Below, piece by piece: positions 56,612 through 60,553 of a stretch of 64,000 nucleotides of DNA. Each line of letters starts with the position of its first letter. Positions within the stretch are counted from its first letter, which is position 1. The notes under the pieces are model-generated. The model made no database searches, had not been told where the DNA came from, and saw only the letters and a program-made list of their open reading frames with translations. The translations under genes were made by a program, and so were the position numbers. Source of the DNA: an uncultured Candidatus Binatia bacterium (GTDB lineage: Bacteria > Desulfobacterota > Binatia > Bin18); contig OZ243961.1 in the NCBI GenBank assembly GCA_965214605.1, forward strand, positions 4,192,001 to 4,256,000, read 5' to 3'.

Positions 56612-58237
56612 ATGACAAACGCTGAACAACAGACTCAGACCGCTGGTACGGAGTCAGTCGAGCAATTTGATGCGATCGTCATCGGGGCCGGCGTGATGGG
56701 ATTATATCAACTGTACCGTCTGCTGAAGATGGGACTGTCGGTGCGGCTCTATGAGGATGGCGGGGGGGTGGGCGGCACCTGGTATTGGAACCGCTACCCC
56801 GGCTGCCGCTTCGATTCCGAGAGTGAAACCTACGGCTACTCCTTCTCCGAAGAACTGCTCCAAGAGTGGGATTGGAAAGAGCATTTTTCGGGCCAGCCGG
56901 AGAACGAGCGCTACCTCAACTACGTGGCCGATAAATTCAACCTGCGCTCTCACATTCAGCTCAATTCTCGGGTCGGCAGGGCAGTCTACGACGAGAACGA
57001 ACATTGCTGGGAGGTCCAGATTGAGAATGGTCGGCGAGCGCGGGCACAATTTCTCATTGCAGCGGTCGGTATCCTGTCGGCGACGTATATGCCTCCCTTT
57101 GAAGGAATCGACAGTTTTGAGGGCGAGTCGTTTCATACCTCGCGTTGGCCGAAGGAGAAGGTGGACTTTAGCGGCAAGCGGGTAGGGTGCATTGGTACGG
57201 GAGCTACGGCCGTGCAGCTCATCCCGATTGTAGCCCAGGAAGCGGGTCATCTGACCGTGTTTCAGCGCACGCCAAACTACTGCGCGCCGCTCAGGAATTC
57301 GGAAGTCGGAGGAGAGATCCAGCGCGAATGGAAGACCAGCTACCCGGAAATCCACAAGCGGTGCCGTGAGACTCCGGCCGGCTTTATGCATGATTTCGAT
57401 CCACGGTCCACCCTAGAGGTCCCCAAAGAAAAGCGACTGGCCCTGTACGAGGAGTTGTGGGCGCTGCCGGGCTTCAAGAAATGGCTAGGCAACTTCCACG
57501 ACATTATGACCAACCGGGAGGCCAACGAGGACTTCGCCGAATTTGTCCGTAACAAGATCCGTGGTCGGGTTCACGATCCGGTGGTGGCGGAAATGCTCGT
57601 GCCCAAGGATCATCCGTTCGGGGCCAAGCGTATCCCTCTGGAGACCAACTATTACGAGGCCTACAACCGGGATAATGTGTTGCTGGTCGACGTGCGCAAG
57701 GCCCCGATCGAACGCATCATTCCCAAGGGTGTTAAGACTCAGGATGCCGAGTACGAATTTGACGTCATCATCTATGCGACGGGCTTTGACGCGGTATCCG
57801 GGCCCTTGACCCGGATCGATATTCGTGGCGAAGACGGGCAGACCTTCAAGGATAAATGGGCCAACGGTCCACGCAGCTACCTTGGTCTTCAGACCGCCGG
57901 CTTTCCGAATTTCTTTCTTGCCACAAACTCGGCCTTCTGCAACTATACCGTCTGTGCCGAGATGATCGTGGAGTGGATAGCCGACTGCATCGGCTATCTA
58001 CGCGAGAAGAACCTCTCATGTATTGCGCCCACTCCGCAGGCCGAAGAAGCCTGGGTGGAACACGCCAACGAGTTGGCCGCCCAGACACTCTTGAGCGACG
58101 GAGACTCCTGGTTTATGGGCTCGAATATTCCGGGGAAGAAACGCGCCCTCCTGCTGTATGCCAACAGCGCCCCGGCTTATCGGAAGAAGTGCGCGGAGGT
58201 GGTGGCCAACGGCTACGAGGGGTTTGTGATTCAATAG
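56612..58237 (+). CDS. Type I Baeyer-Villiger monooxygenase
   Basis: 'GAGVMG', 'GGTWYWNRYPG...D', fingerprint 'FEGESFHTSRWP', 'GTGATA', 'ATGF'. Confidence 0.95.
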   Translation: MTNAEQQTQTAGTESVEQFDAIVIGAGVMGLYQLYRLLKMGLSVRLYEDGGGVGGTWYWNRYPGCRFDSESETYGYSFSEELLQEWDWKEHFSGQPENERYLNYVADKFNLRSHIQLNSRVGRAVYDENEHCWEVQIENGRRARAQFLIAAVGILSATYMPPFEGIDSFEGESFHTSRWPKEKVDFSGKRVGCIGTGATAVQLIPIVAQEAGHLTVFQRTPNYCAPLRNSEVGGEIQREWKTSYPEIHKRCRETPAGFMHDFDPRSTLEVPKEKRLALYEELWALPGFKKWLGNFHDIMTNREANEDFAEFVRNKIRGRVHDPVVAEMLVPKDHPFGAKRIPLETNYYEAYNRDNVLLVDVRKAPIERIIPKGVKTQDAEYEFDVIIYATGFDAVSGPLTRIDIRGEDGQTFKDKWANGPRSYLGLQTAGFPNFFLATNSAFCNYTVCAEMIVEWIADCIGYLREKNLSCIAPTPQAEEAWVEHANELAAQTLLSDGDSWFMGSNIPGKKRALLLYANSAPAYRKKCAEVVANGYEGFVIQ

Positions 58238-58265
58238 ACCGCTGTTCGTAGCCTCCTCCCCCTGA

Positions 58266-58287
58266 GCTGAGCGACCCGTCGCTCAGC
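58266..58287. terminator. Hairpin GCTGAGCGA-CCCG-TCGCTCAGC downstream of the BVMO gene
   Basis: 9-10 bp inverted repeat about 30 nt after the stop; no U-tract. Confidence 0.35.
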
Positions 58288-58304
58288 CCGGCCTCCTCCA
58301 CGAA

Positions 58305-58480
58305 ATGGGAGAGGGGCAGCTTCGGCATGCCTTCCTCGCGGCAGCGGCGGCCACTCGTGGGCTCGCTGTCGTGACGCGGAACACGGGCGGGTTCCGCAAC
58401 GAAGAGAGATGTGGCTTCCCCTGTACAGTTGCTGTCGTGACGCGGAACACGGGCGGGTTCCGCAACACCGGCGTCGCGAC
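58305..58480 (+). pseudogene. C-terminal relic of a VapC/PIN toxin gene
   Basis: 'LAAAAATRGLAVVTRNTGGFRNTGV' matches the PIN 'IAATA...L.VVTRN..DF..TGV' tail, with the catalytic Asp lost. Confidence 0.65.
58365..58466. repeat. Exact 36-bp direct repeat flanking a 30-bp unique insert (CRISPR-like geometry)
   Basis: GCTGTCGTGACGCGGAACACGGGCGGGTTCCGCAAC at 58365-58400 and 58431-58466, with an internal hairpin GCGGAAC/GTTCCGC. Spacer GAAGAGAGATGTGGCTTCCCCTGTACAGTT. Confidence 0.9.
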
Positions 58481-58748
58481 GGGCGGTATGAAGGCGCAAG
58501 AGGCCGCCGGCGCCGCGAGTTGCAAAGGAGTCACCCCTAATTCGCCGGCCAGGGCCGCGACGACGGGAAGGAACGCCGCCGTCGCGGCCGTATTGCCGGT
58601 GAGCTCGGTCAAATAAATGACGAGCGCCACAAGACCCAACACCAAAACGACGGCGGGATAGACGCCCAGCGCCCGCAGGCCGCCGCCCAGCCACTGGGCA
58701 AGACCGGTCGAGCCGATGGCCGCGGCCGGACTGAGGCCGCCGGACAAA
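58468..58748 (-). pseudogene. Fragment of a DASS/SLC13 di/tricarboxylate transporter gene
   Basis: 'GGLS.AAAI..TGLA.WLG...IYLTELT.NTA...FLPV...ASCAF..PVATP' covers the SNT and PVATP motifs of SLC13. Confidence 0.8.
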
Positions 58749-59393
58749 CAGGGAGACGCTGGTGACGGTTGACGGAGGAGAGATCGTCTACGAAATCGAT
58801 GACGACCTGTGTTCGGGTGCTGGCATACGATGGTCGAACGACGAGTTGACCTCTGCACTCAAGGGGCGGGTTGCAGCCGTGCTCTTCGATGACGAGGGTA
58901 AGGCGAACATCGAAGAAATCCTCGTCGCGTCGGCGGAGACGGACTTTGCTCGTGACGGACTACGTCGCGTGCTGGAGGATCCCGAGGAGATTGAGGAATG
59001 GAGGGTGGGAGAAGCGATTGCGGAAACCTATCTGACAGAGCATCGGTCATGCAGCTTCCCATGGCCGGACGGACGCGACGAGAGAAAGAGCGGGTCCAGC
59101 CTGCTGGGTGCCGATTTGGTCGGATTCGGGATCGCTGATGAAGGCGATTGCCTTGCATTCGGCGAAGTGAAGACATCTAGTGATCGCAGCCATCCCCCGG
59201 GAGCGATGTACGGTCGCACGGGGCTGAAGCGGCAGCTGGAAGATCTGCGGGACGACGAAGCCGTCCGCGACGATCTCCTGAGGTATCTCGGTCATCGTGC
59301 CGGGTCGGCTCCGTGGCGAGCGCGGTTCGAGTGTGCGGGAAGCAGGTATCTGCGGAACAAATCCGACATTCAACAGCCGCGGCCGCTGACTGG

Positions 59394-59711
59394 CTACGCG
59401 GTGCGCCGCAACAGCTCCTCTAAGGCCCGGCCTTGGCGTTCGAGCGCCTGGCCGATCTGGCGCACGGCCTGCCCCAACGCGGCGCCCTGTTGTTCGAGCG
59501 CGTGGCCCAGCTTGTCAATTTCACGATCGCGCCGCCGCCCGGCCTGCTGCATCTGGCGCAGGCCCCACACAAGACAGGCCAAGCCGCCGGCGCTGACGAG
59601 GAGCTGCACCCCCGCTATCACCACGCCGGCCTGGTTGACCCAGCTCGTGCGATTGGCGGCCTGCAAGGCGGCGACCGCCTCCCGCGCTAATTGGACAAGT
59701 TCCGGCTCCAT
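59394..59711 (-). CDS. Small single-TM plus coiled-coil protein (105 aa)
   Basis: AGGAGGAGG RBS; hydrophobic 'GVVIAGVQLLVSAGGLACLVWGL' followed by heptads 'GHALEQQ/GAALGQA/GQALERQ/GRALEEL'. Confidence 0.75.
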   Translation of the reverse strand: MEPELVQLAREAVAALQAANRTSWVNQAGVVIAGVQLLVSAGGLACLVWGLRQMQQAGRRRDREIDKLGHALEQQGAALGQAVRQIGQALERQGRALEELLRRTA

Positions 59712-59825
59712 CGTCGTCCTCCTCCTGATGCGCGCTGCCAGCGGGGCGCCGTGCGTAGCCGGCTGGCGGCCCGGCCGCGGCAAAAGGTGTGGCAAACCGT
59801 TGGAGGAGCGTGATACGCCGCGCGG

Positions 59826-60044
59826 TCAGGCCGCCGGCTGGCGCCCGGCGATCGACTCGCGCAAGCCCTCCAGCAGCCCTTCGAGGTGGGCCATGCGTTC
59901 ACGCAGCTCGGCTTGCCCCCGCTCAAGAGCGGCTAAGCGCGTCTCGACAGCCCGCAGGCGGGTCGCGACGCCGCGCTGCCCAGCGAGAATCACCCCAGCG
60001 AGGGCGACGCCTACGGCGAAAATCCCCATCAGTTCCGGGCTCAT
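59826..60044 (-). CDS. Small N-terminal TM plus leucine-zipper protein (72 aa)
   Basis: GAAGGAG RBS; 'IFAVGVALAGVILA' then 'LRAVETRLAALE...LRERMAHLEGLLEGL'. Confidence 0.8.
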   Translation of the reverse strand: MSPELMGIFAVGVALAGVILAGQRGVATRLRAVETRLAALERGQAELRERMAHLEGLLEGLRESIAGRQPAA

Positions 60045-60113
60045 CTCTCATTCTCCTTCAGAACTGGCGTATACCAGATCAATATTTTTCTCGCAAGGAA
60101 TTCTGTCAGGCTT

Positions 60114-60125
60114 GAGCAATTGCTC
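60114..60125. promoter_or_regulatory. Perfect 12-bp palindrome GAGCAATTGCTC in the insert's divergent intergenic region (candidate operator)
   Basis: Read from sequence; lies between divergent genes, one of which is an RHH-like regulator. Confidence 0.4.
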
Positions 60126-60256
60126 CAACTTTCTCGAAGGGTCTCTTGTAAGAGAAATGATTGGATTTTATATCATAAATAGGGGGAAAGGGAGAGGAGA
60201 AGGACGAAGATACCTGGAGATCCGGCACAAAAGAAGGCCGGAGGAAGGAGACCCAG

Positions 60257-60553
60257 ATGGCCGATCAGCCACAGGACGGCTCACGGCCGCGGCCGGGCGG
60301 CGGGGACCAGGCGCGGCCCCGCAAGCGGCGGCGCGCCCGCACGACCCCCCTGTATCCCTGGCAAGTCACGCTCTCGCTTCCCGCTGCCGTGGGTGAGCGC
60401 GTCGAGCGCGCGAGTGAGACGGGCGGGGTCGCCGTGCCGGAAGTGGTCCGCCAGGCCGTAATCGCCGGGTTGCCACTGCTGCTAGACCGCTATCGACACC
60501 GCAAAACGAATATACGGGTTCCTTGTCCGGGACGTGCCTCTCCATCAGGATGA
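60257..60553 (+). CDS. Ribbon-helix-helix/CopG-like protein, cut at the insert's right junction (reads on into hamA sequence)
   Basis: AAGGAG RBS; 'QVTLSLPAAVGERVERASETGGVAVPEVVRQAV' fits a beta-alpha-alpha RHH pattern. There is no stop before 60509. Confidence 0.65.
   Translation: MADQPQDGSRPRPGGGDQARPRKRRRARTTPLYPWQVTLSLPAAVGERVERASETGGVAVPEVVRQAVIAGLPLLLDRYRHRKTNIRVPCPGRASPSG

Follow-up and report, generated by a model that had tools for sequence, protein, structure and literature searches.

Off-target integration by CRISPR adaptation modules has been amply documented in vitro and in over-expression strains of Escherichia coli; clean natural cases with a source, an empty site and a module are rare. 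To our knowledge, no natural off-target footprint has been described for a type II-C system; literature searches gave none, though these were not aimed at type II-C specifically. In E. coli, off-target integration by the type I-E system yields neo-CRISPR units (Nivala, Shipman & Church 2018, as cited in 10.1101/148544). For type II-A integrases, the results reported in PMC6895254 indicate that off-target sites resemble the natural junction and that a ruler sets the second site, the ruler of the Streptococcus thermophilus enzyme keeping the repeat length at any sequence. Off-target acquisition is also one of three origins proposed for isolated arrays (Shmakov et al. 2020, as cited in PMC13142298). 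Among type II-C systems, transcription of the arrays of Flavobacterium columnare is reported to start at promoters inside the repeats and to run toward the leader (PMC8092290, PMC5965381), and the host genome is described as being sampled, functional self-targeting spacers then being selected against (Hoikkala et al. 2021, PMC8092290).

The unit described here lies within a vapC relic in the window (i.e. the whole 64,000-nt stretch of DNA analysed, C1:4192001-4256000) of an uncultured Candidatus Binatia genome. It is very probably the footprint of a single off-target, full-site integration by the genome's own type II-C module. Like the E. coli neo-CRISPRs, as these are described in the citing work, the unit combines a spacer-length insert with a repeat-length duplication of host sequence, lies at a site with some likeness to the true repeat and would depend on a resident adaptation module. 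Unlike those units, which are type I-E, of 28/33 geometry and products of over-expression, it is natural, has type II-C 36/30 dimensions and has an identified self donor; contigs suggest both filled and empty alleles, and ~16 more units from three other systems are found in the same genome. A 36-bp repeat and a 30-bp spacer are shared with the S. thermophilus type II-A system (Kim et al. 2019, PMC6895254), a subtype that has Csn2, and from whose reported in vitro and plasmid-based events the present unit differs in being type II-C, in carrying its likeness at the probably leader-distal end and in having an integrase known from sequence. Surveys of the kind made by Shmakov et al., as cited, begin from arrays called by CRISPR finders, whereas the repeat of this unit is unlike any array family and is accompanied by one spacer, an empty site and a known source. 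As reported for F. columnare type II-C (PMC8092290), the host genome appears to have been sampled; unlike in that system, the self-spacer resides in an apparently non-functional ectopic unit and can persist. Events of this kind are already known (i.e. neo-CRISPR), and the present locus adds a type II-C case with its geometry, module, donor, empty site, apparent polymorphism and sister events. The features of the unit and its surroundings, in window positions, are as follows.

58365..58400: copy 1 of the duplicated 36-nt target (i.e. the neo-repeat), vapC coding sequence, LAVVTRNTGGFRN on the + strand
58401..58430: 30-nt insert (i.e. the spacer), an exact copy of the chromosomal site G000:C1:1462643-1462672
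58431..58466: copy 2 of the duplicated 36-nt target, running in frame into the native 3' part of vapC (TGVAT)
58296..58481, + strand: vapC (PIN-domain toxin) relic, a C-terminal fragment split by the 66-nt unit and aligning to residues ~103-140 of the 149-aa PIN protein of genome G056
58514..58741, - strand: transporter relic (CitMHS / Na-sulphate-symporter type), C-terminal piece, Pfam PF03600 E 5e-6 and PF00939 E 1e-5

Positions 58365-58466 are occupied by an exact repeat-insert-repeat of 36-30-36 nt with a start-to-start spacing of 66 nt. Both this duplication and the base counts given in an earlier, sequence-only reading of the window (i.e. 15/30 G+C in the insert and 25/36 in the repeat) were correct on re-examination. 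A search of the whole 4.37-Mb genome (G000, a metagenome-type assembly of 9 contigs) with up to 3 mismatches found two copies of the 36-mer, both in the unit, and a reversed-pattern control gave 0; an exact 36-mer pair at fixed spacing is expected ~1e-15 times in a genome of such size. The + frame reads across the unit as ...HAFLAAAAATRGLAVVTRNTGGFRN / EERCGFPCTV / AVVTRNTGGFRNTGVAT. On the minus strand the unit reads GTTGCGGAAC...GACAGC and contains a 7-bp stem, which had been put forward as a CRISPR-like hairpin. The reading and the stem are indeed present, but the stem is ordinary for its base composition (-7.4 kcal/mol, z = -1.44, with 14/200 shuffles folding equally well), so that the argument adds little. 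As a cause of targeting, the hairpin was dropped since it folds no better than shuffles; we know of no need for a hairpin in type II repeats. Rfam gave nothing on the unit at E up to 0.1. The 36-mer had 0 matches in the metagenome_contigs and genome_contigs collections, where records of this genome itself are possibly absent. Matches to Cas1 and Cas2 were lacking throughout the window, in line with the earlier remark that it holds no cas genes.

The relic keeps only the last ~35 residues of VapC and is not a gene, and Pfam finds no PIN domain in its 85-aa frame. Comparison of the 45-residue relic peptide with 55 family genomes identified a single relative besides the own genome (i.e. G056, E 1.2e-5), with 68% identity over 28 residues. 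The match is to the C-terminus of an intact 149-aa PIN/VapC protein (PF01850, E 2e-12) encoded 3' of a FitA-like antitoxin, which justifies the label of vapC relic given to this fragment from the letters alone. Aligned pairwise, the relic and this protein stay colinear to either side of the unit, and the single gap, which measures exactly 22 residues (66 nt), falls between ...FRN and TGV..., indicating an ancestral state in which the 36-mer was present once and the insert was absent. The single-copy empty site that would be expected on the earlier reading was thus observed in a colinear VapC homologue and also in the contigs of two sequencing runs (see below). Among 41 genomes searched for an orthologous empty site, none contained the relic region; 18/41 matched window positions 58150-58800, solely over the 3' end of the upstream gene (to ~58305). 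For the adjoining transporter relic, the PF03600 and PF00939 scores are both under the curated cut-offs and cover profile ends only; its presence beside the vapC relic places the unit within a stretch of decayed genes.

These observations bear on whether the unit could be a genuine small array, or be borne by a mobile element, with a repeat family of its own and a vapC look that exists in translation only. The repeat-spacer-repeat form and the small hairpin in the repeat would suit such an origin. It is extremely unlikely, as the repeat is colinear with the conserved PIN C-terminus on both sides, the 36-mer is found nowhere else in the genome or the collections, the pairing with the tracrRNA candidate described below is weak and the spacer is self DNA.

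One further site in the genome, C1:1462643-1462672, 2.8 Mb away, carries the 30-mer with 30/30 identity (search of the whole genome with up to 3 mismatches); the chance expectation for an exact copy elsewhere is ~8e-12. Homology between donor and insert ends exactly at the insert borders and the flanks differ on both sides, which disposes of the idea, raised in the sequence-only reading, that the 30-mer might belong to a longer tandem duplication. A source was therefore found in the host chromosome, and the 30-mer gave 0 matches in the metagenome_contigs and viral_contigs collections, where records of this genome are again possibly absent. The donor site lies within an ~800-bp intergenic stretch whose flanking genes are conserved in 7/7 congeners. 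Alignment of the sequence surrounding this 30-mer to congener G007 identifies it as native, and hence as the donor rather than the recipient. A promoter/terminator scan of the donor region was empty, and Rfam gave nothing at E up to 0.1. The wider donor element (C1:1462590-1462760) is intergenic, is conserved in G007 and contains a near-invariant hairpin stretch, CTGGTTGCCGGCCTGCC.GGAATGGG, with no ORF of note; its role may be that of a small RNA or of a regulatory site.

The insert, being self DNA with a conserved hairpin next to its source, could also owe its presence to a non-CRISPR process (e.g. templated patch insertion in double-strand-break repair), the type II-C dimensions then being coincidental. 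The junctions argue against this, as BLAST found only a gapped 5-nt likeness at the left junction and the right junction is without microhomology. Break repair also leaves the 36-bp staggered duplication unexplained. Such a process is very unlikely to have produced the unit; the other solitary units of the genome, considered below, bear on it further.

Filled and empty forms of the site were compared in public sequencing data. The stretch is present in six public runs from three studies, and the contigs of four runs were compared with the window. Run X2 contains the three pieces expected of the filled form (i.e. 57900-58394, a 90-nt loop unitig at 58371-58460 and 58437-58568) with 0 differences, at depths of 7 for the loop unitig and of 10 and 9 for the flanks. 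In runs X1 (depth 5.2) and X5 (depth 63.6), one contig each joins 58364 to 58431, omitting 66 nt, and in these contigs 36 letters fit either side. Cover over the insert in X1 is wholly explained by the contig of the source locus, the loose ends at 58401 and 58430 being the flanks of the source. A minor contig of X5 (depth 7.5 vs 63.6), with T>C at 58367, seems to enter the spacer. All run contigs were assembled with words of 31 letters. As the repeat, at 36 nt, is longer than these, the empty form has no word of its own, and the absence of the unit from X1 and most of X5 is deduced from summed depths and not from reads. Read with words of this length, the contigs suggest that X2 is filled, X1 empty and X5 mostly empty, and the type II-C-class insertion appears to be still polymorphic in natural populations.

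The contigs of X2 also bear on a concern of the sequence-only reading, that of misassembly: as this run carries the filled form (58371-58460) with 0 differences, the unit is not a misassembly of the present record alone. That the unit arose during assembly, or as a 66-nt duplication by slippage or simple tandem copying, is barely credible. The 66-nt period preserves the reading frame and the assembly is of metagenome type with 9 contigs; the same junctions nevertheless recur without differences in the contigs of another run, and the 30-mer bears no relation to the sequence after copy 2 and matches a distant source exactly.

Two further observations were made on the run contigs. In run X6, the contigs of a near-identical strain (1 difference in 333 nt upstream) depart from the window at 58232 and return near 58820; the whole relic stretch, window 58233-58819, may be strain-specific, a reading that rests on a part without cover in X6. 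At window positions 58539-58742 and 58825-58982, several runs contain extra contigs that are 90-95% similar to these stretches and deeper than the flanks. The transporter relic and the start of the 58762-60396 ORF would thus exist in further copies, either paralogous or from related strains.

Outside the window, the genome contains a complete type II-C locus, with the following features.

C1:528854-534720: type II-C locus with cas9, cas1, cas2, a tracrRNA candidate and an array
C1:528854-529970: type II-C array, 17/17 identical 36-nt repeats and 16 spacers
C1:534600-534720, + strand: tracrRNA candidate, upstream of cas9 and divergent from it

The cas9, cas1 and cas2 genes are contiguous, with no gene between them, and are open frames without stops. 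Scores were 613 bits for the 1080-aa Cas9 (TIGR01865), 255 bits for the type II Cas1 (TIGR03639, whose cut-off is 120) and 72 bits for Cas2. No csn2 or cas4 is present, which is the II-C layout, and two ORFs upstream of these genes had no NCBIfam match. The tracrRNA candidate comprises a 22-nt anti-repeat, whose two mismatches could both form G-U pairs, and, after it, hairpins and a stem that resembles a terminator and has a tail rich in T; Rfam gave nothing for the locus, this candidate included, at E up to 0.1. From the anti-repeat, the crRNA sense of the array is GCTGCGGATT...CTATACT, directed toward cas2. Assignment to type II-C is consistent with cas9, cas1 and cas2 as the only cas genes, the tracrRNA candidate and the 36-nt repeats. 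Spacers of 30 nt make up 11/16 of the array; two are of 31 nt, and one each of 29, 37 and 47 nt. The two spacers nearest cas2 (C1:529815-529934) are those of 47 and 37 nt, and the other 14 are of 29-31 nt. Comparison of the unit with the real repeats and spacers of the genome thus identified a resident Cas1-Cas2(-Cas9) module with 36-nt repeats and mostly 30-nt spacers.

The other arrays, located by a k-mer scan of the genome, were as follows (repeat/spacer lengths in nt).

I-E array: 28/33, 97 repeats
III-B-linked array: 37/39-52, 24 spacers, the shortest of 39 nt
I-D array: 38/33-40, 75 spacers, the shortest of 33 nt
V-C-like short-repeat array: 25-nt core

A 36/30 geometry was found in the II-C array only and in none of the I-E, III-B, I-D and V-C-like arrays. 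This distribution bears on the integrase responsible. At least five Cas1 genes lie beside arrays in this genome, and the I-D and III-B repeats, at 37-38 nt, exceed the duplication by only 1-2 nt; integration by another resident enzyme (i.e. the I-D, III-B-associated, I-E or V-C Cas1) is, even so, very unlikely. A spacer as short as 30 nt was found for 0/75 I-D and 0/24 III-B spacers and the I-E system duplicates 28 nt, whereas 36/30 is the exact dimension of 11/16 II-C units and the neo-repeat resembles the II-C repeat.

Several further features of the working arrays and their remnants were recorded. Spacers 51 and 94 of the I-E array and spacer 15 of the III-B array have full-length exact matches in the genome, at C1:3170433, 3218149 and 51258; the two I-E self-targets, 48 kb apart, may mark an integrated element. 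True I-E repeats also form an isolated mini-array (C1:2534815-2535083), distant from the I-E cas operon. At C1:3644466-3644640, a three-repeat remnant ending ...GATTGAAAC adjoins cas1 and cas2 fragments, the latter with a TAG stop.

Resemblance between the neo-repeat and the true II-C repeat was examined over the full length and at the ends. The reverse complement of the neo-repeat matches the true repeat at 18/36 positions, as compared to 11/36 in the opposite orientation, and a likeness of 18/36 is attained at 0.24% of genome positions. Of the first 8 nt, 7 are shared, as is the case at 7.7e-4 of genome positions. This likeness lies at the crRNA-sense 5' end of the true repeat, which is probably leader-distal by analogy with F. 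columnare II-C as reported in PMC8092290, and not at the leader-repeat junction, where the specificity of II-A integrases is greatest, so that the choice of site remains a matter of interpretation. The flanks of the unit had no clear likeness, by eye, to either flank of the true array. A motif, G.T|GYTGCGGA, written post hoc, has 47 sites in the genome and is not a test.

A PAM for the II-C system could not be derived, as searches of the own genome, phages, plasmids and 55 family genomes left all 16 genuine spacers without a target. Within the own genome, 0/16 were matched outside arrays beyond a 16-nt chance match, and comparison with phages gave no target. A plasmid match of 27 nt (E 0.3) and a match of 21 nt among the 55 family genomes (E 0.008) were both rejected; the remaining family-genome matches were related arrays in G006 and G057. 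The 3' flank of the self-protospacer of the window unit, in crRNA sense, is TGGTTGCC. A PAM was also sought for the I-E system and dropped, as the self-protospacers of the I-E-class units and of the two self-matching genuine I-E spacers gave no consistent motif.

Taken with the module, the unit has the composition of a neo-CRISPR. The duplication has the resident repeat length, the insert has the spacer length and the adaptation genes are intact; the host target is single-copy in the empty state (as judged from contigs whose words are shorter than the repeat), and the protospacer is separate, with homology confined to the insert. The ectopic spacer acquisition proposed from the sequence is therefore supported by a II-C module of 36/30 dimensions, a self donor and an empty site. 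In the mechanism that we propose, a 30-bp prespacer would have been cut from the cell's own chromosome, at the intergenic element C1:1462643-1462672, and joined by the type II-C Cas1-Cas2, possibly with Cas9, to both strands of the vapC pseudogene at points 36 bp apart. Gap filling would then duplicate the 36-bp target, producing a repeat-spacer-repeat with the dimensions of the array itself. The site was probably chosen for the likeness of one of its ends (GTTGCGGA...) to the start of the true repeat at its 5' side (GCTGCGGA...), and the ruler of the integrase would then have placed the second cut. Both copies and the spacer are unmutated, indicating that the integration was recent.

The genome was scanned for exact direct repeats of >=16 nt with a period of 40-110 outside arrays, giving 95 pairs, which were then extended, with tandem coding repeats set aside. 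Seventeen solitary units fitted the repeat length and spacer range of a resident array (i.e. seven I-E, four I-D, five III-B and one II-C), and nine more were near-misses. Among exact units, duplications of 28 nt were found in four, of 36 nt in one, of 37 nt in three and of 38 nt in two. The II-C unit is that of the window; the positions of the others are as follows.

I-E-class units: G000:C1 91695, 500128, 1399850, 4089123, 3921609, 2692053 and 711165
I-D-class units: G000:C1 2103855, 3068860 (= C4:3868), 2360674 and 1967748
III-B-class units: G000:C1 2197075, 3676203, 594400 and 1509183; C6:7607

A second genomic copy of the spacer was found for 7/17 ectopic units (i.e. the window unit and six of the other 16), a count that leaves out one unit copied whole on contig C4 and one matching a local repeat. 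Only 3/211 spacers (1.4%) of the four true arrays had a full-length self match, as compared to ~40% in the ectopic units (Fisher's test, p = 3.6e-7, indicative only, as the grouping was made on the feature itself). The unit at C1:2360674 (38/38) is single-copy in congeners G006 and G007.

These units bear in two directions on the non-CRISPR process considered above. The period is 73 in all I-D-class units although its division varies (38/35, 37/36 and 42/31), and such a period would arise from only 10/75 genuine I-D spacers; a pure integrase model does not predict this pattern, which favours a non-CRISPR process, and a second process may be at work in the genome. Against such a process, the duplication equals a resident repeat length in four separate classes, and the inserts fall within the spacer range of each array. 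For the window unit, off-target integration by the II-C module remains the preferred reading.

Some individual units and candidates merit description. The unit at C1:594400 (37/47) was not counted as self-derived, as its 'spacer' matches a nearby repetitive stretch, and it may not be an integration at all. At C1:711165-711315, a 28-29-nt unit occurs three times, the copies being 33 and 31 nt apart, and its repeat includes a poly-C tract that varies in length; the first 9 nt match the I-E repeat at 7/9 by eye. A second spacer may have been added here to an ectopic site. A 34/43 repeat-insert-repeat (C1:1692739-1692843) lies at the 3' end of a fused cmr6/cmr1-like gene in the type III-B operon, and its in silico removal extends the open frame from 229 to 807 aa.

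The functional consequences of the new repeat were assessed by its predicted pairing with the tracrRNA candidate. The predicted duplex energy is -47.9 kcal/mol for the true repeat, as compared to -22.4 and -16.6 kcal/mol for the two orientations of the neo-repeat. The -10-like TATACT with which the true repeat ends is likewise missing from the neo-repeat. As compared to a functional II-C array, the unit is deficient in tracrRNA pairing and does not share a repeat family with the cas-adjacent array (18/36 matches, with the 36-mer in this unit only). The unit is most likely inert, as judged from these predictions, and inertness would explain why a perfectly self-matching spacer is tolerated in it. 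The phrase 'birth of a neo-array', used of this locus in the sequence-only reading, is therefore unlikely to apply in a functional sense, given the poor pairing of the new repeat with the tracrRNA candidate.

On this reading, the case shows a type II-C module sampling its own chromosome in nature, and the empty vapC site, set against the true repeat, is a concrete substrate for testing recognition by II-C integrases. For the genome as a whole, we lean slightly toward a wider interpretation, in which at least 17 ectopic footprints have been left in one wild genome by four co-resident modules, with the II-C event apparently polymorphic and new arrays perhaps nascent. Unread by the effectors, such units would preserve, as neutral fossils, the DNA that the integrases take up ahead of any selection. 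If true, this wider pattern would provide a natural off-target data set for four integrases and a direct estimate of how far autoimmunity filters self-spacers from working arrays.
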